A stretch of 64,000 nucleotides of DNA from the NCBI GenBank assembly GCA_964637295.1, contig CAZWWE010000003.1, positions 37,565 to 101,564 on the forward strand, given 5' to 3'. Every line of letters starts with the position of its first letter. Position 1 is the stretch's first letter. This document shows positions 1,610-32,299 of the stretch, one piece after another. The DNA is from an uncultured Pseudomonadales bacterium (lineage in GTDB: Bacteria > Patescibacteriota > Microgenomatia > UBA1400 > PJMF01). The position numbers were made by a program, and so were the translations under genes. A model generated the notes under the pieces. It saw only the letters and a program-made list of their open reading frames with translations. It did no database searches and was not told the DNA's origin.

Positions 1610-3536
1610 TGCTCAAATTAGTAGTGGGATCTTGAAAGAGAAAATTGAAAGTAAAGTTATTTTGATAGATATCACTTAATTCAATTTTTTTAATACGTGG
1701 ATCTAGTTGACTCAGCGCATCCATGAAAGTGCCCACTGCCACGGTGTTTTGCAAGGTGAAGGTTAAACTTTCATTGATGGTGGCGGTTTTAATAATTTTT
1801 TGATAACGAGGATATTTTTTTGCCACTGCTAATAAACTAGCTAAATCAATTTCAAGAGCAACTAAGTCCTGATCTAAAATTACCAGATGCCCAATGAATT
1901 GGCGGCTGCGATCTTGCTTGACGATGATCAGCTCAGCCTCTTGCTTGGCTTGTGGCAGAGTGAGCTTGCGAGCTGGTTTTTCTTTGATGAGGAGTTTTTG
2001 TTGGTGATTAAAGATAAATAAGCGTTCGCAAAGGCTTAAAAAATCTCCTTTGACTTGGCGATAATTTTGTTTGGCTACTAAAGTGAGAGTTAGATTTTGT
2101 TCAGGTAAACCACTTGTTTGTGGATGATAAAGTTTGGCAATTTCAAACACGGCGAGTTGTTGGCGAGTTGGATTCTGTGCCAAAATTTCACACAAAGATG
2201 GGATTAAACTGCGTCGCAAATATTGATGTTCTTGAGTGAGTGGATTAGCCAGCTTGAGATGCTGTTCTAAATCATAGCCAGATGACACAGCTTGTTCGGC
2301 GCTGACTAGCGAATAACTATAAATTTCTTGCCAGCCTCGTGTGGCCAGAAAATGTTTAATCAGATTTTCCAAGTGATAATCAGTAGTAGGATCAGGGTTG
2401 ACGGCTAGTTCACCACTCATTAATTTACTGGGTAAATTGTGATAGCCATAAATTCTGGCTAATTCTTCGATCACGTCGGCGGGAATTTGCAGATCAGAAC
2501 GAAAAGTCGGCGGAGTAACCAGAATTCCATCATTTTTACTAATTACCTGGCAATCTAAATCGGTAAGAATGGTTTGAATTTCTTCCTTTGGCAGTTTGAT
2601 GCCCAGATAATTTTCAATGCTTTGGTATTTGACTTGGACTGGCAGAGCTAACTTGGGAGCAGGAAAATAATCATAAAGCTCTGAGGCAACTTGAGCTTGG
2701 CAAAGTTGACTAAATAATTGGACGCCGTACATCATCACTGCTTTGGCTAAATGAGGATCAACATTTTTTTCATTTAATTGGGCAGCCACAGTACGAATAG
2801 CATGACTCATTGAGGCATAACGTACTTTTTGAGCATCAAGAGATTCGATCCAAAATAAAATTGACTTTGTGTGCTGATCGACGCCCGTATTCAGCGTGCC
2901 CTTGATTGCTGGCAAATCAATGATTTCGCCATTTTCTGCTTCGAAAACAATTTCTCCGCCAAGAGTTTGATGAGTCGCACCGTCTAGAGTGACAAAGCTT
3001 TTACCTTTATTGGCTTCTTTGATGATAATTTTGCCACCCAAATTCATGATTTTGTCATAATCAAAAACGTGACAAGGATGTCCCAATTCGTGAGTGACAT
3101 AATTACTGATATCAATGAGAGCTTCATGAACATTGACGTCAATGGTTTGTAGTCTTTGTTTCATGAGCTCTGGACTATCCACATGTTGCACGTTGGTCAT
3201 CACTACGGCCAAAACACGATGTACAGCCTCAGTTTCATAAATAATTTCTGGCAAAGGCAAGTTCTTGTGGGGATGCTTTTTAATTTCAGGAAAATTAATG
3301 GCTTTGAGCTTAGCTGCAAAACCAGCTCTTTTCAGGATCGTAGCGGCTTCACGAGCGATGCCGCGTACCGACATGCAATCAACTCGATTAGTAGTTACCT
3401 CAAGGTCATAAACGTCATCATGGTAAATTCTTTCAACTGAAGGACCACTCAGAGAGAGATATTTTTGAATATCTGTTTTACTAGCCGTAGTTTGTAAGTG
3501 TTCACGTAGCCAAGAATCTGGAATTAAAATGTTCAT
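1527..3536 (-). CDS. pheT: Phenylalanine--tRNA ligase beta subunit (shortened, 669 aa)
   Basis: N-terminus MNILIPDSWLREHL matches the PheT consensus (M..S..WL.E). The gene lies immediately downstream of pheS with a 2-nt gap. It carries tRNA-binding and B3/B4 domain-like regions. Confidence 0.9.
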   Translation of the reverse strand: MNILIPDSWLREHLQTTASKTDIQKYLSLSGPSVERIYHDDVYDLEVTTNRVDCMSVRGIAREAATILKRAGFAAKLKAINFPEIKKHPHKNLPLPEIIYETEAVHRVLAVVMTNVQHVDSPELMKQRLQTIDVNVHEALIDISNYVTHELGHPCHVFDYDKIMNLGGKIIIKEANKGKSFVTLDGATHQTLGGEIVFEAENGEIIDLPAIKGTLNTGVDQHTKSILFWIESLDAQKVRYASMSHAIRTVAAQLNEKNVDPHLAKAVMMYGVQLFSQLCQAQVASELYDYFPAPKLALPVQVKYQSIENYLGIKLPKEEIQTILTDLDCQVISKNDGILVTPPTFRSDLQIPADVIEELARIYGYHNLPSKLMSGELAVNPDPTTDYHLENLIKHFLATRGWQEIYSYSLVSAEQAVSSGYDLEQHLKLANPLTQEHQYLRRSLIPSLCEILAQNPTRQQLAVFEIAKLYHPQTSGLPEQNLTLTLVAKQNYRQVKGDFLSLCERLFIFNHQQKLLIKEKPARKLTLPQAKQEAELIIVKQDRSRQFIGHLVILDQDLVALEIDLASLLAVAKKYPRYQKIIKTATINESLTFTLQNTVAVGTFMDALSQLDPRIKKIELSDIYQNNFTFNFLFQDPTTNLSNETVEPIRQKIVRMAENEFQAQLVGQI

Positions 3537-3538
3537 AC

Positions 3539-4582
3539 TTAAAATTGCTCCAAAAAGTCTAGATTACCTGAATAAAAAAGTCTAATGTCGTCAATGTTCA
3601 AATCTTTTTTCAAAGTATAAGTGCGCTCCACTCCCCAACCAAAAGCAAAGCCAGTGTATAAATCTGGATCAATGCCGCCAGATCGCAAGACATTGGGGTG
3701 CACCATGCCAGCGCCACCGACTTCGTGCCAGCCAGATTTACAAAAACGGCAATTTTCTCCCGATGATAGTTGACCAGTGCCGCCACAAATATGGCAACTA
3801 AAATCAACTTCAAAAGAAGGTTCAGTAAATTGAAAATGAAAAGGTCGAATGCGACTTTTGGTGCCCGGCCCATAAAAATTTTGGGCAAAATAATCCAGAG
3901 TGCCCTTGAGATGCTGAATGTTAATGCCCTGATCAATCACTAAGCCTTCAAATTGATGAAACATTTGAGTGTGAGTGGCGTCACTTTGGCGACGATAAGT
4001 GCGCGCCACATTGATCATGCGGATCGGCGGCTTGGCTTTAAGGCGCTCCATTTCGCGCACTTGTCCATTGGAAGTGTGAGTGGTCAGAACCATCTTGCCC
4101 AATTTTTTATCTGCTGGCGTGTCAATAAAAAAAGTTTCCCACTCATCGCGGGCTGGATGATCTTTAGGCATGTTGAGAGCCTCGAAAACATAATAGTCGA
4201 AATCAACCTCTGGATAACGAACGCGATTGAAACCAATTTTTTCAAAAATTTGACAAATTTCTTCAATAGCTTGAGAAATTGGGTGTAAATGACCAATTTT
4301 TGGTTTTAATCCAGGCAAAGTCAAGTCAATTCGGTCATTGTCGTTTGGTTGTTGAGCGAGCGTTGCAATTTTTTGTTCAATTTTTTGCTTTAATTGATTT
4401 AATTTTTGGCCAAAACGTTTTTTTTCATCATTGGGCACATCTTTGATCAAAGCGGCGAGTTGCTTAAAAGCACCATTTTTACCCAGATATTTGATGCGCA
4501 ATTTGGCTTGGTCAGTCTCGGTTTCTTGATTGATGGTTTGTGCCAGATCTTGGCAGAGTTGGAAAGGATCCGATTGGTTCAT
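3539..4582 (-). CDS. pheS: Phenylalanine--tRNA ligase alpha subunit
   Basis: Class II aaRS motifs are present, including FRPFHFQFTEPSFEVD (PheS motif 2/3 region) and GWGVERT, in the typical pheS-pheT order. Confidence 0.92.
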   Translation of the reverse strand: MNQSDPFQLCQDLAQTINQETETDQAKLRIKYLGKNGAFKQLAALIKDVPNDEKKRFGQKLNQLKQKIEQKIATLAQQPNDNDRIDLTLPGLKPKIGHLHPISQAIEEICQIFEKIGFNRVRYPEVDFDYYVFEALNMPKDHPARDEWETFFIDTPADKKLGKMVLTTHTSNGQVREMERLKAKPPIRMINVARTYRRQSDATHTQMFHQFEGLVIDQGINIQHLKGTLDYFAQNFYGPGTKSRIRPFHFQFTEPSFEVDFSCHICGGTGQLSSGENCRFCKSGWHEVGGAGMVHPNVLRSGGIDPDLYTGFAFGWGVERTYTLKKDLNIDDIRLFYSGNLDFLEQF

Positions 4583-21133: not shown

Positions 21134-23497
21134 TTAACGCTCCAACAAGGCAATTTTTAATACCGTCGCCACGTCAGACACTGGTTTGAAAGTTACTTGC
21201 TGATTTAGGAGTGGCAAAATTTTTTCTAGATCGCGCTCGTTTTCTTGAGGAATAATAATCGTTTTGCTGCCAGCATTATAAGCGGCAATGGCTTTTTCTT
21301 TGAGTCCGCCAATGCGCAAAACTCGTCCACGCAAAGTAATTTCTCCAGTCATGGCCACATCTTTGCGCACAGGACGCTTGGTGAAAGCAGATACCAAAGC
21401 GGTTGCAATCGTTACTCCAGCAGAGGGGCCATCTTTGGGCACCGCTCCTTCTGGAACATGAATGTGCACGTTGGATTTATTAATCAGTTCCATGCTAATT
21501 CCTAGTTCGCGATGATGGGCGCTGACATAAGTGAGAGCTGCTTGTGCCGATTCTTTCATCACTTCGCCCAATTTGCCAGTTAATTTAATTTGGCCTTTTC
21601 CTGGAGAAAGGGCCACTTCGACAAATAACACCTCGCCGCCGACGCTGGTCCAAGCCAAACCAGTAGCCAAGCCGACCTGATCTTTGTTTTCTGCTAAACT
21701 TTCGTCAAAAATCGCTGGCCCCAGATATTCTTTCAGTTTTTTAGGAGTAATTTTGATTGTTTTACTTTCTTTAATTAAAATTTCCCGAGCTACTTTGCGC
21801 ATAATTTTATTAATTTGTCTTTCTAAATCTCTGACGCCGGCTTCTTTAACGTAATTTTTAATAATTTTAGTCAAAATCATTTCATCAAGCTGCACCACGT
21901 TTTTATTTAAAGCATTGGCTTGTAAGCTTTTTTTAAGCAAATAACGTTTGGCAATTTCCAATTTTTCATGTGCCGTGTAACCAGAGTATTGAATAATTTC
22001 CAAACGATCACGCAGGGCGGCTGGAATAGTATCCAAAGTATTAGCAGTGGCGATAAACAAAACATTAGACAGGTCAAAAGGAAAATCTAAATAATGATCT
22101 TCAAAAGCATAATTTTGTTCGGGGTCAAGCACTTCTAAAAGAGCTGAGCTGGGATCGCCACGAAAATCGTTACCCAATTTATCAATTTCGTCCAGCATAA
22201 AAACTGGATTGCTGCTTTTCGCATTAGTCAGGGCTTTAATAATTCTGCCTGGCATAGCCCCAACATAAGTGCGGCGATGACCGCGAATTTCCGCTTCATC
22301 TCGCACTCCACCTAAGGAAATCTTGGTAAAATCTCTGCCTAAGGCATTGGCAATAGATCGGCCAATGCTAGTTTTGCCGACACCAGGTGGACCAACAAAA
22401 CATAAAATCGTGGGCAAATTTTGACTTTTTCGTTTTGCTTGTTTTTGTTTTAATTGTAAAACAGCCATGTATTCTAGAACGCGATCTTTGACTTCTTCTA
22501 AGCCGAAGTGATCTTTGTCTAATAAAGTAGCAGCTTTTTGAATATCAATTGCTTTGTTTTTTAATTTGCCAAAAGGTAGTTCAAAAACCAGATCTAGCCA
22601 ACTGCGAATATAAGCCCCCTCTGGATTATTGGGTGACATTTGCTGCAATTTTTTGATTTCTTGTTCAACTCGCTTGGCTATCTCTGCAGGCAACTTAGCT
22701 TTTTTTAATTTATGAGCATAATCACTGATAATCTCTTCTTCATCATCAAGTTCGCCTAGTTCTTTTTGAATGGTGTGCAATCTTTCGCGCAAAATACTCT
22801 CGCGCATGTGTTGATCAAATTTTGCTTGTGTTTTTTTAGAGACATCTTTCTCAATTTCTAAAACCTTGATTTCTTTGGATAAATAAAAAATGATTTTTTT
22901 AATTCTGTCTTTGACTGCCACCATTTCTAAAATTTGTTGCTTTTCTTTGGTGGACAGAGTGAGGGTGCTGGCAATTTGATCGGCCATTTCACTTTCATTG
23001 ATGCCACTGAGCAACTTGATAAAATTTAAAAATTCAATTTGCTTGCCCATTTGGACCGTTTTTTTAAACAGTTTCTGTAATTGATTGCTGAGCGCCAGCA
23101 ATTCTTCGTCTCTGGAAAATTTTTCGTAAATTTTTTCGACACTGGCCAATAAAAAAGGTTGTTCTTGCAAAAAATTTTGCACTTTTACTCGACCTACGCC
23201 ACGGACTAAAGCGCTGACACTGTTATCAGTGACCAGAGTTTTTTCAATAATCGCCAAAGTGCCCACTAGATAAAGATCGGTGGTTTTTGGTTCTTCTAAG
23301 TTGGCTTGTTTTTGGGTCAACAAGACTACGTATTTATTGTTAATTTCACTTTTTTTAATCGCAGCAAGTGACATTTTTCTGCCAAAAGTTAAGACTGACT
23401 CGGTAGATGGAAAAAGCACCCCCTCGCGAATAGGAATAACAGGCAAACTTAATTGACTGGTGGGTAAATTTTGCGCTTTATCGGGCTTTACTGGCAT
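21134..23497 (-). CDS. lon: ATP-dependent Lon protease
   Basis: LON N-domain, the AAA+ Walker A motif GPPGVGKTS, and the S16 catalytic-domain motif [13 protein letters not shown]. Confidence 0.95.
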
Positions 23498-23583
23498 AGT
23501 TTTTAGATGGCTAGTTTTTCTTAAATAGTGGTAAAAAATTGGTGAAAATCAATCATCTTTGCGCGTCAATAAGTCATTTAGCG

Positions 23584-23657
23584 TGGGTGTGCTTGGAATC
23601 GAACCAAGGACCTCAGTCTTATCAGGACTGCGCTCTAACCATCTGAGCTACACACCC
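23584..23657 (-). tRNA. tRNA-Ile (anticodon GAT), downstream of 16S
   Basis: The reverse complement folds as acceptor GGGTGTG/CACACCC, D arm GCTC-AGATGGTTA-GAGC, anticodon stem CAGTC/GACTG with loop CTGATAA, T arm CTTGG-TTCGATT-CCAAG, and discriminator A. Confidence 0.85.
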
Positions 23658-23845: not shown

Positions 23846-24200
23846 CAAAATCAAATCAATGCAAAACAGCTCTCAAGTACAAAAAAACCGCCAGAATACA
23901 GCGGTTTTAAAATCATCAAGAGCAATTGAAAGCAAATACAGTGACAGAAAGTATGACCTAGACACAATGATCATAGGATTTGTATTTTTCGTCTAGATCG
24001 CTCTAGACGGGAGAAGGAGGTCGTGAAAAAACTCCTACCCATTCTCCTTAGAAAGGAGGTGATCCATCGCCACCTTCCAGTAGCGATACCTTGTTACGAC
24101 TTAACCCTCATCGCTAACCTCACCGTAGAAGGGCCACTCGCTTGCGCGTTATGGTCACCCGCTTCGGGTGTTGCTAACTTTGCTGGTTTGACGGGCAGTG

Positions 24201-25109
24201 TTCTGAGATAATTAGTTCATCACTGAACTTTACTTCTCTCCCGACTGGGCACACGGTTTTCCCGTACCCTAGCCGACGCTTGATTTTTTACTAAATTTAT
24301 TCATTTTTTTGCGAATGGCTCGCAATTGCTCAATGCCATCTAAAGTTAAATGCTGTTTACTCTTAAATATTTCTACGGCTTGTAGAAAATATTGATAAGA
24401 CAAACGTTTTTTAGCTCTAAGCGGATATTGATTAAAAAATGGAATTAATTTATCAATAATTTCCCTGATCGAAGACACTTTTAGTTCAACGTGTGGATGC
24501 CACCCATAACGCTCATAATTGAGAGTATAGATATGACCACAGCCGAGTGTTTTTTGAATTTGTTGCAAGATTTCTAAATCATCGCTTCGCAATTCGATTT
24601 GAAAATGCAAACGCGCATCCAGACCCAATTTCTTGGTAGGATGTTTAGAGATGACGATGGTGAAGCAGCCTTCTCCATCAACAAATCCTGCTATATATTC
24701 GCCAGGTAATTTTTTATCAAGTGAGTCCTTCCCTTTCTTATGAAAGGTACTATGACTCTTGCAGACTTCCTGATGAATGTTTGATTTCATCACTTCCATC
24801 ATACTCATTTCTCGTTATTAAACAAGAAGCGAGAGACATCAGGATCTCCCTTTGTACCCATAAAGACCTTTTGTTTTCATCTCGAGCCCAGATATTTTAA
24901 ATACTATACTTAAATAAGTAGTTTCCCCAAATGTACGAATGGGTCACCAATATTTAAAATCGTTTAAACTTCAAGCTGAAAACTGCTACTTTTACCCTTC
25001 ATCTAGCTCCTTGCGGAGATTAGACTGTAATTTGGCTTTACTTGGCTTATTTCCAAGTAGTTGGATTCACACCAACTTGTTTTTATAGGCGAAAGGCGCA
25101 TATTTACGT
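24201..25109 (-). mobile_element. Intron (probably group I) inserted in 16S rRNA near E. coli position ~1396/1397, carrying a homing endonuclease ORF
   Basis: 909 nt interrupt the otherwise colinear universal motif TTGTACA|CAC(C/T)GCCCGTCA. The insert encodes a single-motif LAGLIDADG protein in the rRNA sense orientation. Boundaries are placed by the exon consensus and are good to ±1 nt. Confidence 0.7.
24269..24808 (-). CDS. LAGLIDADG homing endonuclease (single-motif type) encoded inside the 16S intron
   Basis: LPGEYIAGFVDGEGCF matches the LAGLIDADG consensus (LAGFIDGDG). The 179-aa product is typical of homodimeric intron-encoded endonucleases. Confidence 0.8.
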   Translation of the reverse strand: MSMMEVMKSNIHQEVCKSHSTFHKKGKDSLDKKLPGEYIAGFVDGEGCFTIVISKHPTKKLGLDARLHFQIELRSDDLEILQQIQKTLGCGHIYTLNYERYGWHPHVELKVSSIREIIDKLIPFFNQYPLRAKKRLSYQYFLQAVEIFKSKQHLTLDGIEQLRAIRKKMNKFSKKSSVG

Positions 25110-26562
25110 TGTACAAGGAGCGAGAACGTATTCACCGCAACCTGCTGATTTGCGATTACTACCGATTCCGACTTCATGCTCTCGAATTGCAGAGAACAAT
25201 CTGAACTGAGGGGCCGTTTAAGGATTAGCTCCACCTCGCGGTCTTGCTTCCCGTTGTCGGCTCCATTGTAGGATGTGTGTAGCCCTGGATGTAAGGGTCG
25301 TGCTGACTTGACGTCATCCTCTCCTTCCTCCCTGCAAAAAGCAGGGCAGTCTCTCGTGACACTTGTAACACGAGATAAGGGTTGCGCTCGTTACCACACT
25401 TAAGTGGACGCCTCACGACACGAGCTGACGACAGCCATGCAACACCTGTGTACCACTCTCGAAGAAGACTTAGTTTCCTAAGCCGTGCAGGTACATGTCA
25501 AACCCAGGTAAGGTTTTTCGCTTTGTATCGAATTAAACCACATGCTCCACCGGTTGTGCGCTCCCCCGTCAATTCCTTTGAGTTTTAATCTTGCGATCGT
25601 AATCCCCAGGCGCCTTGCTTAACGCGTTAGCTTACATCACTCAATCCATAAAGGACCAAGCAATTAGCAAGGAATGTTTACGGCTTGGACTACAGGGGTC
25701 TCTAATCCCTTTTGCTACCCAAGCTTTCGTCCCTGAGCGTCAGTATTACCCTAGGAGCCCGCCTTCGCGAATGGTGTTCCTCTCGATATCTACGGATTTC
25801 ACCCCTCCACCGAGAATTCCAGCTCCCCATAGTAAACTCTAGTTTATCAGTTTTCCATCCTGTATCTGGAGTTGAGCCCCAGTATTAAAGATGAAACTTG
25901 ATAAACCGCCGACGGTACGCTTTACGCCCAGTAAATCCGGATAATGCTTGCACCCTACGTATTACCGAGGCTTCTGGCACGTAGTTAGCAGGTGCTTTCT
26001 AGCAGGGTACGCTCAAAATTTGTTCCCCTGCCACAGTGGTTTACACTCCGAAAAGCTTCTTCCCACACGCGGTGTCGCTGCGTCAGACTTTCGTCCATTG
26101 CGCAATATTCCCAGTTGCTGCCACCCGTAGGTGTAGGCACCGTGTCTCAGTTACCTTGTGGCCGGTCATGCTCTCACACCGGCTACCCGTCATTGGCTTG
26201 GTGAGCCGTTACCTCACCAACTACCTGATAGGGCGCAGGCCTCTCCCCAAGCGTCTTGCGACTTTGACCTTACGGCCATATGCGGCATTACCCCACCTTT
26301 CGATGAGCTATTCCCCACTTGAGGGTAAGTTCCTACGTATTACTCACCCGTCTGCCACTCGTTCTTGCGAACCGTTCGACTTGCATGCTTAAGGCACACC
26401 GCCAGCATTCATCCTGAGCCAGGATCAAACTCTTAAAAAAAAGTTTGATTAGCTCTATAAAAAACTAATTTGATTTACTTAAAAAATTGACGGACTTTTC
26501 CAAAAAAAGGAAAAATCCTTGCACACTTTCTATCACTATATTTATTTTCAATTGGCTGTTAC

Positions 26563-27054: not shown

Positions 27055-27897
27055 GTGAGTGTTTACTCTATACTTTTTAGTATGAGTGCAATTAAGCAAG
27101 CGATTTTACTGACCATGAGCGTTCTGGCGGCTTATTTGTATCTGCAAGTGCCTTTTTTGAAAGAGTATTTTTTGCAAGCTTTTGCTTTGAGTAGTGCTGT
27201 TTATTTATTTTTACAAAAGCAGCAGAGGGGCTATTCTGCCTTATTTTTAGCCAATCATTCTGTATTAGGTTTGGCGATAATCAATTTTGCTTTTTTATTA
27301 TTGGTGGGTGCCAGTGGTTCTCTGGCCTCACCCTTTTTTGCCCTGACTTTTATTGAACTTTTCTTTGTTGCGTTGAGTACATCGGCAAAAAATACTTTGT
27401 TGTTGAGTTTAGAAATCATGGTTTTTCATTTTAGTCTGAGCATTGCCAATAGTAACCATTTTAGATTGGAAACAGCGCAATTATCTAATTTATTAGCTTT
27501 GCCAATTGTGAGCATTTTTTATTTATTTGCCAAAAACCAATATGAGAAAGCTTATCGCAATCACTTGTTGCTTGATTGGCAAAATCGAGAATTAGAGCGA
27601 GCGCAAAGCGATGATCAAGCCGTAGCAGAATTTGTCACCTCTTTACTTAATCGACGCTTGCCGATGCTAGAATTTTTACTGAGTTTTCCAGAAAAGAATC
27701 AGGCAGCTATTTTGGCAGAAATCCAAATTTTAAAGCAAGATTTAAACTTATTGATTAGACAAATTGAGAAAAAAACTGAAAGCTCAAATTCAGATCAATC
27801 GCTTATCTTGAAACAGGAAGAAGCCAAAACGCCAAATATGGAGGCTCTAATCGATCTAGTGGAAAAAGAAAGTCATGAAGAAAAGAAAAGCCCATGA
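27055..27897 (+). CDS. Membrane protein with a C-terminal coiled-coil (first gene of the surface-protein operon)
   Basis: GTG or ATG start, ~5 transmembrane helices, then a charged coiled-coil tail (QDLNLLIRQIEKKTES...). No enzymatic motif is visible. Confidence 0.5.
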   Translation: MSVYSILFSMSAIKQAILLTMSVLAAYLYLQVPFLKEYFLQAFALSSAVYLFLQKQQRGYSALFLANHSVLGLAIINFAFLLLVGASGSLASPFFALTFIELFFVALSTSAKNTLLLSLEIMVFHFSLSIANSNHFRLETAQLSNLLALPIVSIFYLFAKNQYEKAYRNHLLLDWQNRELERAQSDDQAVAEFVTSLLNRRLPMLEFLLSFPEKNQAAILAEIQILKQDLNLLIRQIEKKTESSNSDQSLILKQEEAKTPNMEALIDLVEKESHEEKKSP

Positions 27898-28721
27898 TCA
27901 AGGCAAAGGTGAAAACGACTAAGATTGCATCTTTAATAATAGGTTTCTTTCTATGGAGTGGTTTTGCTTTGCCAGCAAATAATCAAGTCATGGCTGAGGA
28001 AATGCAGTCTAATTCGTATAAGATTCAATTTGGCAATTTTAATATGGCTTCTGGTCAAAGAAGTGGTGAAACTTACGCTCTCTCAGATACTATGGGTGGC
28101 TTAGCTGTGGGGCCCTATGGACAATATGGTAGTAGCAGCTACTTTATTGGTGGTGGTTTTCAATATGTTTATCAAATTGATTATTTTTTCTTTAGCATTT
28201 CCAAATTAAGCATCAATTTGGGTGAATTATTTGCAGATAGTTTTAAAACTGACTCACACACAATCAGCGTGACCACTAATGGGGCCAGTGGCTACAAAGT
28301 GTATGTTTTTGAAAATCATCCGCTGCGCTTGATTGGAGCTAGTACCCCTAGCCCCAGCACTGATCTAAGTGACACCACTTGCGATGCTGGCTGTGATGAA
28401 AGCACCGCTGGACTGTGGACTAATGCAAGCAATGCTGGTTTTGGTTTCAACGTCAGTGCCAATGTTTTGCCTAATGCTAATTTGCCAGGCGGCACTTTTA
28501 ATTTGGGCGATGATGATGTGGCCGCTGATTTTATTAATCAGAATTATTTTCGTCAATTTGCGAATAACGAAGCTGGCGAAAGCATGCAGGCAATTATGAG
28601 TTCTGATAATGTTGCTTTGCAGAACACAGCCACTGTGACTTATAAGGCCGCTATGGCTGGCAATCAAACAGCCGGTTCTTATCAAACAAGCATTGTTTAT
28701 GTGGCCGTACCTGGCTATTAA
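27894..28721 (+). CDS. Exported protein, paralogue A1 (shares a ~110-aa C-terminal domain with A2)
   Basis: Signal peptide. The C-terminal block GLWTNASNAGFGFNVS...FRQFANNEAGE...SYQTSIVYVAVPGY aligns with A2's DWTNASTYPGFGYSLS...AKQFADLAAGE...NYENYIVYTASATF. Its start overlaps the upstream stop (ATGA). Confidence 0.55.
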   Translation: MIKAKVKTTKIASLIIGFFLWSGFALPANNQVMAEEMQSNSYKIQFGNFNMASGQRSGETYALSDTMGGLAVGPYGQYGSSSYFIGGGFQYVYQIDYFFFSISKLSINLGELFADSFKTDSHTISVTTNGASGYKVYVFENHPLRLIGASTPSPSTDLSDTTCDAGCDESTAGLWTNASNAGFGFNVSANVLPNANLPGGTFNLGDDDVAADFINQNYFRQFANNEAGESMQAIMSSDNVALQNTATVTYKAAMAGNQTAGSYQTSIVYVAVPGY

Positions 28722-28730
28722 GTTTAATTT

Positions 28731-29780
28731 ATGTCAATTAAAAAATATCTCTCATTTTCTTTGCTTATTAGTTTGTTGACTTTAGTTTTTTTAAGTAAAC
28801 CGACTTTGGCGGCTTCAGCTTTGGACTTAAAAATTTATCCACCAGTTGCCTATCTATCAGTTAAGCCTGGCGCAGGCATTAACCACCTAGTCAAGCTGAG
28901 CAATCAAGGCCTTTACACTTTAGAGATTGCTCCGACTTTGGTTAATTTTCAGACTGATGGCAAATCTGGAGCAGTTATTTTAGAGCAAAGTAGTGATTTT
29001 ACTTACCTTAATTTAGAAGCCGATCCGGCCAATTGGGGTAAATCTTTTATTCTTAAACCAGGAGAAGAAAAAAATCTTAATTTTGTTATTGCTCTTCCCA
29101 GCTTGGTGCCAGAAAAAGAGTTTCATTTATCAATTTTATTTCAAGCCAGACAAGTGGCACAAGGTAGCAGCCATCAACAACAAGCAATTCTGTCAGCGAT
29201 TGTGGCCAGCAATGTCGTTTTGGCAGTGAGTAATGAAGGGCAAAATCGCGGAGAATTGGTCATTGAACAATTTAATGTACCCAAGCTAGCCGACAGTTTG
29301 ATAGGTTTTAGTTTCAGCGCTTTGTTAAAAAACATTGGTTCGAATGCTACTCCTATTACTGGACAAATTAAAATTAGTCATTGGCCAGCCGCCCAAGCAG
29401 AAATATATCAGTTATATCCAGATATGGTTTTGGCTGGCAGTCAGCGCTTGGCTCGAACAATGAGCGAGACGGAGCTAAAAAGTTTAACGCAGCTCGAAGA
29501 AAGTAAGGCAGTTTTAGCTGCCAACGGTGAAGATTATGCAGCTCGCAAAGCTCAATTAATTAGAGAAAAATTAAAATCGCAAGTTTTTTATAAAAAAAGC
29601 TTTTTACTTGGTGCTTATGATTTAGAATTAGCTGTTGGCGAGCAAACATCGAGTAAAAGGGTGATAGTTTTGCCTTTTTCGCTATTGTTCATCGTTTTAA
29701 TTCTGCCGATTCTTTATACTCTATTTAGTCTGTTACAAAAATTGACGCAGAAAGTTATTTTAAAAAAACCCGATAATTAG
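28731..29780 (+). CDS. Exported protein with a C-terminal transmembrane anchor, paralogue B1 (DUF916-like architecture)
   Basis: Signal peptide, then a beta-rich domain (DLKIYPPVAYLSVKPGAGINHLVKLSNQGLYTLEI...), a coiled region, a C-terminal hydrophobic anchor and a basic tail (KKPDN). It is a paralogue of B2. Confidence 0.55.
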   Translation: MSIKKYLSFSLLISLLTLVFLSKPTLAASALDLKIYPPVAYLSVKPGAGINHLVKLSNQGLYTLEIAPTLVNFQTDGKSGAVILEQSSDFTYLNLEADPANWGKSFILKPGEEKNLNFVIALPSLVPEKEFHLSILFQARQVAQGSSHQQQAILSAIVASNVVLAVSNEGQNRGELVIEQFNVPKLADSLIGFSFSALLKNIGSNATPITGQIKISHWPAAQAEIYQLYPDMVLAGSQRLARTMSETELKSLTQLEESKAVLAANGEDYAARKAQLIREKLKSQVFYKKSFLLGAYDLELAVGEQTSSKRVIVLPFSLLFIVLILPILYTLFSLLQKLTQKVILKKPDN

Positions 29781-29832
29781 CAAATTAATAGTTGACGACC
29801 AGACTTAAACAGGTTTATGCTTAAGTAAACTT

Positions 29833-31275
29833 ATGAAATTCAAGCAATTATTGTTTTTATTCACCCTTGTTAGTTTAGTTTTTTTGGCAGCCAAGAAAAA
29901 TCTGGTTTTTTCTGGTGAATTCACCAATGTTTCTGCTACCTTGAATAATGCTCGCTTGTCTTTTCGTGGAGCTTTGGAAGGCACCCAAACTACAGGTTCA
30001 TCTTTGGTGACCATTGATACCGGCAATTACCCTTCCGAATCGGTTTTGCAATTACAAAATCGCGATACTTTGACCATTAATGATAGCACTTACACGGTGG
30101 CCACTACGATTGATGATGCTAGTGATAATACTTTTAACTTAACTGCTGGTTTAGATGCCAGTGATATTACTAACGATGCACCCATTTACGGCAATCAAAG
30201 ATCTAGTTTGACCGTGCGCCTAAAAACCATCAGTGCTTTAAGCGCTGGTTCATTTCGCATCTTAGTGCCAGCAATTAGTAACACTGGCACGGATCACGAT
30301 GGCATTCCAGATGCGGGTGGTTTCGATTTTGGCACTGGTACCACCGCCGCCATCACTTGTCCGACTCTAGCTGCCTATGGCACTTTTACTGCTGCAAGTA
30401 CTCCAGCCCAGAGTGCAAGTGTAGTAATTGATGGAGTTAATTATCATTCTTTTGTTTGTGAATATAGCGGCTTGGGAGAAGTAGGCACCGATTTTGATGG
30501 CACCGATGCTAATCCTTTTGTGATTAGCAACTTGATTAATCCGGCTCCGAAAACTGGCACTGACAATCATACTTTGGGTCAAGCAGATACCTATACAGTA
30601 ATTATTCAACATCGCGATGCTGCCGATACGGTGATTGATCAAACTTTAACCAAAATCGGTGTAGTTGATGCAGTCAAAGTTTCAGCGCAAATTTCACCAC
30701 AAATTACCTTTACCATTGCTGGTTTGCCAGCAGCCACCAGTGCTTGTGGAGTCAGTACTAATGTTGCTACCACCGCCCTGACCGTTCCTTTTGGAGAATT
30801 GACCATTGGTTCTTTTGTGAATGCAGCCCAGCGTTTAACAGTTACTACTAACGCGATTGGCGGCTATACCGTGACCGCTGCTGAGAATGATCAGCTTGGT
30901 CGTGAAGCCAACGCTTGTGCCACTGATGGTTCTGCGAGTATTACTTGTTTGGTCGATGCTAGCGTGACTGGCGCCAGCCACACTGCTGCTGCTGATTGGA
31001 CTAATGCCTCCACCTATCCAGGTTTTGGCTACAGTTTGTCTTCGGCAGTCGGTTCACCAACTTTAGTTTTTACTTACAATGAGTCCTCACGCACTTTTTC
31101 TGCTAAGCAATTTGCTGATTTAGCTGCTGGAGAGTTGGCGCAAACTATTTTTCAACGCTCGACGGTAACTGCGAGCGATGCCGTCAATGTTTGTTACAGA
31201 ATTGCTCCAGCAGCCACCAATGCCGCTGGAAATTATGAAAACTATATCGTATATACAGCTTCGGCTACATTTTAA
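29833..31275 (+). CDS. Exported Thr/Ala/Gly-rich surface protein, paralogue A2
   Basis: Signal peptide. The central region is low-complexity T/A/G/S-rich, which looks like beta-strands. The C-terminal domain is homologous to A1. Confidence 0.55.
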   Translation: MKFKQLLFLFTLVSLVFLAAKKNLVFSGEFTNVSATLNNARLSFRGALEGTQTTGSSLVTIDTGNYPSESVLQLQNRDTLTINDSTYTVATTIDDASDNTFNLTAGLDASDITNDAPIYGNQRSSLTVRLKTISALSAGSFRILVPAISNTGTDHDGIPDAGGFDFGTGTTAAITCPTLAAYGTFTAASTPAQSASVVIDGVNYHSFVCEYSGLGEVGTDFDGTDANPFVISNLINPAPKTGTDNHTLGQADTYTVIIQHRDAADTVIDQTLTKIGVVDAVKVSAQISPQITFTIAGLPAATSACGVSTNVATTALTVPFGELTIGSFVNAAQRLTVTTNAIGGYTVTAAENDQLGREANACATDGSASITCLVDASVTGASHTAAADWTNASTYPGFGYSLSSAVGSPTLVFTYNESSRTFSAKQFADLAAGELAQTIFQRSTVTASDAVNVCYRIAPAATNAAGNYENYIVYTASATF

Positions 31276-31285
31276 GGCTTAAACT

Positions 31286-32299
31286 ATGCGCAAAAACTGC
31301 CCTGTTTTTAAAATTTTTCATAAACTTAGCTTAACAATCTTGGCTTTGTTTTGTTTTTTGCAAAGCTATGGTATGGCTTTAGCTGCCACTGATTTATCTT
31401 TGACCGCTACCCCAGTGAGATTGGGAGATGATTACAGCATCAAATTGAAACCAGGTGAAAAAAAGCAAGTGCAGGTCAAAGTACGCAACGGTTCTACTGA
31501 TACTTTGGAAATTGAAAGCAAAGCATTGGATTTTGTGGTCGCAGAAGACGGCTTTTCTCCTCTTTTTGTGGACGCTAAAGAAGCTGATCCGCGTTGGAGT
31601 TTGGCTTCGTGGCTGACTTTAGTGCCCAATGAGCATAAGTTAGCCAATGAAGAAGTGGGCACAGTTAACGTTTTAATCGAAGTGCCAAAAAATGCTTTGC
31701 CAGGCGGACACTACGCGATGGTTTATCATCGTCCTCTAGCCTCGACAGCTTTAACTGAGTCTGGATCTGGTATTGCTCAGCGCGTTGGGACTCTACTATA
31801 TGTCGTAGTCGATGGTCCAATCAATGAAGAAGCTTATATTAGCAAGTTTCATTGGCCCAAATTTCTCGAAAATGGTCCGGTTAATTTTTCCTTACAAATC
31901 GATAACCAATCTGATGTCCATATTAGTCCACAGCCTATTTTAAAAATTTATAATTTATTTGGTAAAGAAGTAGCCAAGATTGATCTTGAAGCGAGAAACA
32001 TTTTCCCCAAAACACAACGCGAATTTAGTGGCACTTGGAATAAAATTTGGGGACTAGGTTATTATAAGGCTATAGTTGAGGCTAGCTACGGTAGTGAGGG
32101 TCGCATGTTAAGCGCGGCAGCTGGTTTATATTTAGTGCCAGTCAAATTAATTCTCTTGATTTTAATCATTATTTTGTTAGGTATTATTTTGACTTTAACG
32201 ATCAAAAAACGTCGCCAGCATCAAGACACTGCTGCTAAATCTGATCTTGATTTAGAAACTCAGCATGAAGAAACTGATGATGGAGCAGCAAAAAATTAA
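31286..32299 (+). CDS. Exported protein with a C-terminal transmembrane anchor, paralogue B2 (DUF916-like architecture)
   Basis: Signal peptide, then DLSLTATPVRLGDDYSIKLKPGEKKQVQVKVRNGSTDTLEIE... and ...HYAMVYHRP. It has a C-terminal transmembrane segment and a KKRRQHQ stop-transfer followed by an acidic tail. Confidence 0.55.
   Translation: MRKNCPVFKIFHKLSLTILALFCFLQSYGMALAATDLSLTATPVRLGDDYSIKLKPGEKKQVQVKVRNGSTDTLEIESKALDFVVAEDGFSPLFVDAKEADPRWSLASWLTLVPNEHKLANEEVGTVNVLIEVPKNALPGGHYAMVYHRPLASTALTESGSGIAQRVGTLLYVVVDGPINEEAYISKFHWPKFLENGPVNFSLQIDNQSDVHISPQPILKIYNLFGKEVAKIDLEARNIFPKTQREFSGTWNKIWGLGYYKAIVEASYGSEGRMLSAAAGLYLVPVKLILLILIIILLGIILTLTIKKRRQHQDTAAKSDLDLETQHEETDDGAAKN

Follow-up and report, generated by a model that had tools for sequence, protein, structure and literature searches.

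A probable group II intron with a LAGLIDADG homing endonuclease in a Patescibacteria 16S rRNA gene

The interrupted 16S rRNA gene

A 64-kb stretch of bacterial DNA, called here the window, contains a bacterial 16S ribosomal RNA (rRNA) gene on its minus strand. The gene is interrupted by exactly 909 nt, which we read as a group II intron. According to the Rfam model RF00177 the gene spans 26440..24052, within 1–3 nt of the ends given in an earlier note on this DNA (24051–26437). On the minus strand, the model aligned from 26440 to ...CCUUGUACA at 25110 with a score of 1284 bits. Aligned alone, the downstream piece 24215..24052 matched over 24200..24052, from CACUGCCCGUCA to the 3' end CCUCCUUU, with 106 bits. 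The break thus falls between ...CCUUGUAC(A) and (A)CACUGCCCGUCA, and joining the two pieces restores the universal CCUUGUACACACYGCCCGUCA. The remainder of the gene is colinear with the bacterial small-subunit model, as the earlier note had described. Because an A is repeated at both ends, the insert can be written as 25110..24202 or as 25109..24201, and the two are equivalent. The gene is laid out as follows.

25111..26440, minus strand: 16S 5' exon (E. coli ~1–1395), matched by RF00177 and colinear with the intron-less loci L118, L157 and L175
24202..25110, minus strand: insert of 909 nt, read as a group II (IIC-like) intron; gap in RF00177 and exact break against syntenic intron-less loci
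24052..24201, minus strand: 16S 3' exon (E. coli ~1396 to the 3' end), starting ACACUGCCCGUCA; RF00177, 106 bits

Uninterrupted versions of the same site are common. A scan of metagenome contigs found at least 100 that carry the intact 26-nt junction CGCTCCTTGTACACACTGCCCGTCAA. When the window 16S gene was spliced in silico, it aligned end to end with the gene of the intron-less locus L118, on an 841-kb contig, at 97.5% identity. Identities to other intron-less loci were 96.4% (L175), 95.9% (L173), 94.5% (L082) and, across the 1120 nt available, 98.9% (L157). Gene order on either side of the 16S gene (upstream genes, tRNA-Ile and Lon protease) is shared between the window and all five loci, and in each the alignment ends at window position 25110 and restarts at 24201 at the adjacent coordinate of the locus. 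Chance or an alignment artefact is excluded as the source of the insert. Absence of the element from close relatives at the same locus is what is expected of a mobile intron. The earlier reading of the insert as a self-mobile element within an essential gene stands.

Ribozyme domains and endonuclease of the insert

The Rfam model RF01998 (group-II-D1D4-1) matched 24804..24725 with 37.2 bits, the gathering score being 35. All 12 homologous loci scanned gave an RF01998 match in the corresponding position (40.6–54.8 bits), and another D1–D4 sub-model, RF02001, matched in one of the 12; these two were the only group II models to match. All six domains, I–VI, could be placed in window coordinates, and the ribozyme comprises ~460 nt outside the interior of domain IV.

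25102..25110, minus strand: 5'-terminal linker AACGUAAAU, 9 nt, between the splice site and the 5' motif; such a linker is described for the rns-1396 family (PMC13190283)
25097..25101, minus strand: 5' motif AUGCG, counterpart of GUGYG, from the 13-sequence alignment
24849..25096, minus strand: domain I, basal stem CCUUU...AAAGG and sub-helices IA–ID, from the RNAalifold consensus
24764..24848, minus strand: domain II, closing stem GAGAUCC ... GGAAGUC with an expanded interior; its 3' part lies within the RF01998 alignment
24725..24756, minus strand: domain III, GUC-AUAGUA-CCUUUC-AUAA-GAAAGG-GAAG-GAC, the best-matching part of the RF01998 match
24279..24721, minus strand: domain IV, stem CUUGAU (24721..24716) with AUCAAG (24284..24279), supported by covariation and enclosing most of the open reading frame (ORF)
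24269..24808, minus strand: LAGLIDADG homing endonuclease ORF (PF00961), 179 aa, single motif YIAGFVDGEG
24241..24276, minus strand: domain V, 6 + 4 + 4 bp, GGC triad with a G.U wobble and a 2-nt 3' bulge (GU), from a gapless 66-sequence alignment
24205..24240, minus strand: domain VI, GAGA/UCUC base, GNRA-capped hairpin and candidate branch-point A 24209, from folds of 66 relatives
24202..24204, minus strand: 3' tail AGA, before the 3' splice site

The helices that define these domains are conserved by compensation. In the RNAalifold consensus of 13 introns, 59 of the 89 pairs of domain I show compensatory changes. Domain V has 14 pairs, and among 66 introns with 53 distinct domain V sequences 99.5% of cells are paired; nine of the 14 pairs have changed on both sides. 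None of 500 shuffles scored as high, and slid partners were only 27–49% paired. The domain V triad is CGC, the IIC type, in most relatives; in the window and those closest to it the triad is GGC or AGC, with a compensating change in the partner base. The basal helix of domain VI also covaries (GAGA/UCUC, GGGA/UCCC, GGAA/UUCC and GAAA/UUUC). Directly before its UCUC arm lies A24209, 8 nt from the 3' end, and the same 8-nt spacing is kept in both types of intron found among the relatives, one like the window's and one without a linker. The equivalent A forms a clean single-base bulge in many of them (e.g. L008, L051 and L078). In the relatives analysed, the domain IV stem opens 3 nt after domain III and closes 1–2 nt before domain V (2 nt in the window); its sequence varies between loci while complementarity is kept. 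At the 5' end, columns 18–21 of the 13-sequence alignment (UGCG) do not vary, and column 17 holds either A or U. AUGCG aligns with the GGGUG, UGGCG or UUGCG found at the extreme 5' end of the linker-less relatives. All window-type relatives have an A/U-rich leader of 7–10 nt ahead of this motif, and the other type has none.

Within domain IV, in the rRNA sense orientation, lies most of the 179-aa ORF (24808..24269) that the earlier note had recognized by its LAGLIDADG motif. A profile search confirmed this: the ORF matches PF00961 (LAGLIDADG_1) with E = 3.1e-27 and 95.9 bits, the cut-off being 23.1. The GFVDGEG motif is invariant in 26 homologues, including D44, G45 and E46. In comparisons with solved structures, the ORF is matched at 1e-18 to 1e-25 by either half of the fungal mitochondrial enzymes of the I-OnuI / I-PanMI / I-LtrI family; a single-motif enzyme matched in this way is expected to act as a homodimer. 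The ORF is 97% identical at the protein level to P0001, from a Logan contig. One active, dimeric LAGLIDADG homing endonuclease (LHE) has been described from the candidate phyla radiation (CPR), I-ShaI, encoded in a 23S group I intron (PMC11270868). The window endonuclease may be active on the 16S site in which it resides.

Both ends of the ORF run into the ribozyme. The TAG stop (24271..24269) and the three sense codons before it fall within the 5' strand of domain V, and ORF calls in homologues (P0012, P0019, P0021, P0053 and others) often read through domain V. The C-terminal tails SARVRENRVPGRER, GQGTGKPCARSGEK and RHGAGKPRAGRRET recur because domain V RNA is translated in different frames, and they are unlikely to be genuine protein sequence. 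At the N-terminal end, the usual start of the homologues, MKLPG, lies just after the 5' arm of domain IV. The window ORF remains open for ~35 codons upstream (24709..24808), through domains III and II to ATGs at 24808–24790, so that its N-terminal ~35 aa overlap domains II–III. The closest homologues (P0001–P0006) have the same N-terminal extension. Translation from these ATGs would need to begin inside the folded ribozyme core.

From this evidence we conclude that the insert is very probably a mobile group II intron, small and IIC-like, with a single-motif LHE in domain IV; we put the probability at about 0.88. The LHE replaces the reverse transcriptase usual in group II introns. IIC introns and the rns-1396 family are marked by a small ribozyme lacking IC2 and EBS2; of their other features, the 16S site, the type and location of the ORF, and the 5'-terminal linker were seen here. 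The earlier note had observed that the 5' exon ends in A or C rather than U and had left the class open; a group II class accounts for this, and for an intron that does not end in G.

Several observations weigh against this conclusion. The RF01998 score of the window barely exceeds the cut-off, and this narrow margin is why the model was also run on relatives. The general group II model RF00029, which covers domains V–VI, gave no match at E <= 10 in 23950..25260 or in the 111-nt slice 24190..24300, nor at its gathering score in the 12 relatives scanned. The intron starts with the 9-nt linker followed by AUGCG, not with GUGYG, and it ends in GA, not AY; its last bases are AGA, and the linker-less relatives, which start GGGUG, UGGCG or UUGCG, mostly end in AU. 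Domain V departs from the canonical 34-nt form by an extra bulged A (invariant across the 66 introns aligned), a 5-nt loop (GAAAA) and its GGC triad in place of AGC or CGC. In the window's own minimum-energy fold A24209 sits in an internal loop, not a clean bulge. Finally, the window lacks an in-frame ATG at the MKLPG position, where it reads AAA AAA UUA, so the ORF must begin ~35 codons upstream, within domain II.

Some of these features could indicate that the intron has decayed and no longer splices, the 16S copy being a pseudogene or a second, unused copy. The GGC triad, an A instead of G as first base of the 5' motif, and loss of the usual ORF start codon would all fit. However, a GGC or AGC triad with compensating partners is common to L001, L002, L004, L010 and L019, all helices are still paired, and the exons are intact and 94–99% identical to those of intron-less relatives. 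The ORF is open, closely matches that of P0001, and retains the invariant catalytic residues. A single rRNA copy is also usual in CPR genomes (PMC11270868). We therefore regard decay as very improbable.

Equally improbable, in our view, is excision by RNase III or some other nuclease of the host with no religation, the insert being an intervening sequence and the 16S rRNA left fragmented. Intervening sequences are known from rRNA genes of bacteria, and some of the short insertions in CPR are suspected to be of this kind (PMC11270868). The site, though, is the single-stranded linker of the decoding centre in the established ribosome structure, not a helix tip able to hold fragments together, and a passive spacer needs neither a conserved ribozyme-like core nor a loop that covaries with the exon.

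A group I intron, in which guanosine would attack a 5' splice site held in a P1 helix, is less probable still. Group I introns are the usual home of LAGLIDADG ORFs, and they occur at other 16S sites of the same relatives, where the group I model RF00028 detects them (L001 and L013). The same model, which evidently works in these organisms, found nothing within the insert at E <= 10, and no P/Q/R/S-like elements were seen by eye. The 5' exon ends in C or A instead of U and the intron in A instead of G, and the conserved covarying helices fit group II domains I–VI together with the exon pairing described below. That the insert is an expansion segment retained in the mature rRNA, a formal possibility named in the earlier note for which nothing further was found, is scarcely credible. 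RF00177 cannot place the 909 nt as such a segment, and the insert is wholly absent from close relatives. It also codes for a protein and has a ribozyme-like fold, and insertions in CPR rRNA do not remain in transcripts (PMC11270868).

Splicing of the archaeal type, at a bulge-helix-bulge, was also considered and rejected, as inspection of the junctions by eye found no complementarity. To our knowledge, bacteria lack the enzyme for this reaction.

Exon recognition and splice-site register

Group II introns recognize their 5' exon by pairing between an exon-binding site (EBS1) in domain I and an intron-binding site (IBS1) at the end of the exon. Both could be located.

24926..24943, minus strand: EBS1 hairpin, with EBS1 = GUACA at 24936..24932 in the loop 24940..24929; the stem covaries and the loop co-varies with the exon
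25111..25115, minus strand: IBS1, the last exon bases UGUAC (16S 1391–1395), complementary to EBS1 GUACA

The EBS1 stem covaries between columns 182–184 and 197–199 of the 13-intron alignment. We compared exon and loop with a motif-anchored script over 66 loci and read L001, L002 and L008 by eye. An exon GUAC faces a loop GUAC in the window and 17 other loci by script, and in L001 and L002 by eye; GCAC faces GUGC in L012 (by script) and L008 (by eye). Longer matches follow the same rule: GUACUC with GAGUAC in 37 loci, GCACUC with GAGUGC in one, GUACAC with GUGUAC, GUGUGC or GUGUAU in five, and GCACAC with GUGUGC in two. This co-variation between a domain I loop and the exon is the EBS1–IBS1 pairing of group II introns, and as judged from these sequences it also sets the register of splicing.

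RNAalifold also proposed pairings of the exon GUAC with a GUAC in domain III (columns 4–7/398–401) and of UGCG with J2/3 (18–21/385–388). We treated both as spurious, because all the columns are invariant and GUAC is palindromic.

The second, larger type of relative (L029–L079, e.g. L040 at 2129–3124, L056 and L078), found mostly in Parcubacteria-type hosts, splices after 1397. These introns have no 5' linker and open directly with GGGUG, UGGCG or UUGCG; their 3' exon starts from A1398 and their domain VI has a clean bulged A. Only the 1397 register restores the canonical sequence for the seven GUACAC loci. In 38 loci of this type the host exon reads GUACUC or GCACUC, with U at 1396, and EBS1 compensates with GAGUAC or GAGUGC. 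The EBS1 of window-type introns is two bases shorter, so that their 5' exon would end with C1395. A third register, after 1396, seems to be represented by L053; it is the one tabulated for Thiomargarita.

For the window, we favour 25110..24202, that is, insertion between C1395 and A1396, because the 8-nt spacing of A24209 from the 3' end requires a 3' exon that begins with A1396. The earlier note had placed the site between 1396 and 1397, in the decoding-centre region. The region stands; the exact position is ambiguous by one base, and both the EBS1–IBS1 pairing and the domain VI A point to 1395/1396. The alternative, 1396/1397, yields an identical mature rRNA.

These features suggest how the element would work. 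The intron RNA would fold into its six domains, and EBS1 (GUACA) in domain I would hold the end of the 5' exon, UGUAC at 16S 1391–1395. Domain V would form the catalytic centre and domain VI would offer a bulged A 8 nt from the 3' end. Splicing would be RNA-catalysed, by branching or by hydrolysis. The 5' splice site would lie 9 nt upstream of the conserved 5' motif, leaving a 5'-terminal linker as in other LHE-bearing group II introns. Excision would join ...CTCCTTGTAC to ACACTGCCCG, which would restore the decoding centre and yield a normal 16S rRNA. The endonuclease, as a homodimer, is predicted to cut intron-less copies of the same 16S site (CGCTCCTTGTACACACTGCCCGTCAA), and repair from an intron-bearing copy would then spread the element (homing).

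The three registers may belong to one homologous family of LHE-bearing, IIC-like introns in which the splice site moved among 1395, 1396 and 1397 with EBS1 tracking each move. The 5' end and domain VI of the 1397 type look canonical, whereas the 1395 type, that of the window, has the 7–10-nt linker and a first core base other than G. We offer this tentatively and hold it to be somewhat less probable than its converse.

Distribution, genomic context and comparison with known systems

At least 199 homologues of the ORF were found at E <= 1e-5, and a pattern scan confirmed more than 514 loci in GTDB species representatives. Almost all are from Patescibacteria (CPR), in line with the earlier note's association of intron-bearing 16S genes with this group. 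Of 80 loci fetched, ~70 carry the ORF in an insert of ~900–1000 nt that is flanked within a 16S gene by GAATACGTTC... on one side and ...CCGCCCGTCA on the other. The nearest fetched GTDB representatives are at most ~72% identical to the window over the intron and ~84–86% over the 16S gene. At this distance over the intron, the window element is a further member of the group, not a re-isolate.

The relatives' 16S genes also carry insertions elsewhere. RF00028 matches L001 at 260–547 and 3428–3650, and L013 at 411–639. In many loci, CCGCCCGTCA lies 700–1100 nt instead of ~150 nt from the gene's 3' end, which indicates a further insertion in or after helix 44. Several GTDB records (L002, L009, L011–L013, L017, L038, L040 and L061) are titled 'uncultured Pseudomonadales', 'Gammaproteobacteria' or 'Bathyarchaeia archaeon'. 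On a CPR-type 16S gene with intron, such titles look like placeholder names or binning errors.

For annotation of the window, the 16S gene should be recorded as intact once the 909 nt are removed, the ORF as a homing endonuclease rather than a gene of the cell, and the organism as a member of the Patescibacteria. Automated rRNA callers truncate such genes; here the Rfam match ends at 25092. The insert disrupts the 1392R primer site, as the earlier note had pointed out. Because introns of this kind interrupt the 1391R/1392R site and make the gene longer, the lineages that carry them are under-counted in amplicon surveys.

The gene also departs from the consensus at two places. At 24197 (16S position 1400, within CACUGCCCGUCA) the window has U instead of the universally conserved E. 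coli C1400, a change shared by ~100 intron-less relatives with an uninterrupted junction. In the 515F primer region, 25966..25987 reads GUGCCAGAAGCCUCGGUAAUAC, the consensus being GUGCCAGCAGCCGCGGUAAUAC. Both changes fall within widely used 'universal' primer sites.

The gene's surroundings in the window are as follows. The 16S gene is followed by one tRNA gene and then directly by the Lon protease gene (21134..23497, minus strand).

23583..23657, minus strand: tRNA-Ile(GAU), downstream of the 16S gene

Neither a 23S nor a 5S rRNA gene was detected in the whole 64 kb, which suggests that the rRNA genes are unlinked. Five consecutive plus-strand ORFs (27055..32299; 280, 275, 349, 480 and 337 aa) lie on the upstream side of the 16S gene, none with a Pfam match at E <= 1e-5. 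Their positions are conserved in the syntenic loci L118 and L175.

Among known ribozymes, the group IIC intron of Oceanobacillus iheyensis is the crystal-structure model for group II introns. Its domains II–III (…AGAAGUCAGCAGAAGUCAUAGUACC…GGGGAAGGAC) and the flanks of its domain V (AACCGCC…CGGUGGUGUG) closely resemble those of the window family. That intron retains a remnant of a reverse transcriptase ORF, has no linker, starts GUGUG and lies outside rRNA genes.

Fungal mitochondrial rRNA genes contain group II introns that have LAGLIDADG ORFs together with insertions at the 5' terminus (Toor & Zimmerly 2002; Li et al. 2011; Mullineux et al. 2010, summarised in PMC4424553). Splicing upstream of GUGYG is a documented variant in these LHE-bearing introns and in C.te.I1 (PMC4424553). 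The window LHE is, among solved structures, closest to the fungal I-OnuI / I-LtrI / I-PanMI family. The fungal introns, however, are of class IIB1, mostly encode double-motif monomeric LHEs, and many have lost the branch-point A, whereas the window intron is IIC-like, encodes a single-motif LHE and has kept a candidate bulged A.

Insertions near position 1400 of CPR 16S genes were reportedly first seen by Brown et al. in 2015. A later survey of CPR rRNA insertions found group-II-like insertions only at 16S ~1400, a site named '16IS9' (Tsurumaki et al. 2024, PMC11270868). Of 53 16IS9 insertions, 39 encode LHEs, predominantly LAGLIDADG_1, and none encodes a reverse transcriptase; CPR rRNA insertions as a whole were absent from transcripts (PMC11270868). 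The window element shares with 16IS9 the host clade, the 16S site, the Rfam-based group II call, the Pfam family and a single-domain endonuclease with no reverse transcriptase. The 16IS9 study did not include secondary structure, splice-site register or exon-binding analysis.

The introns of Thiomargarita, a genus of giant sulfur bacteria, that Salman described in 2012 are said to be self-splicing. They were the first found of the family now called rns-1396 (S1396) (Salman et al. 2012, in PMC13190283). Its members are IIC introns that encode a single-motif LHE within domain IV; all have a 5'-terminal linker, EBS1 is built on GUAC, and EBS2 is lacking (Liu et al. 2026, PMC13190283). Judged by published descriptions, the window intron resembles it in its 16S site (1396 +/-1), small IIC-type ribozyme, single-motif LHE in domain IV, 5' linker and GUAC-based EBS1. 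It differs in host phylum. Its register also differs: the window EBS1 (C-GUACA) fits splicing after C1395, and the EBS1 tabulated for Thiomargarita (UGUAC-C) fits A1396. An indirect link is the relative L053, whose EBS1 context, GUGUACC, is the one tabulated for Thiomargarita. The 2026 survey found rns-1396 almost confined to Thiotrichaceae (PMC13190283), in contrast to the more than 514 GTDB species representatives, almost all Patescibacteria, in which relatives of the window ORF were found here.

The window element is thus a further member of the published 16IS9 / rns-1396 kind: ordinary for CPR bacteria, and of a class already described. In this family a group II ribozyme and a DNA endonuclease occur together as a compact natural unit, seated in a sequence that ranks among the most conserved known. 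The family's many CPR variants with exon-covarying loops offer comparative material on splice-site choice, though nothing in this is new in kind. The only point that may be new is the set of registers, 1395, 1396 and 1397, each matched by EBS1; together with the abundance of the element in CPR, this goes beyond what both surveys report. If the splice site did slide within one family by retargeting of EBS1, and if such sliding is undescribed, CPR bacteria would provide a natural series for group II splice-site shifts. They would also be the main reservoir of group II introns with LHEs, contrary to the 2026 survey.

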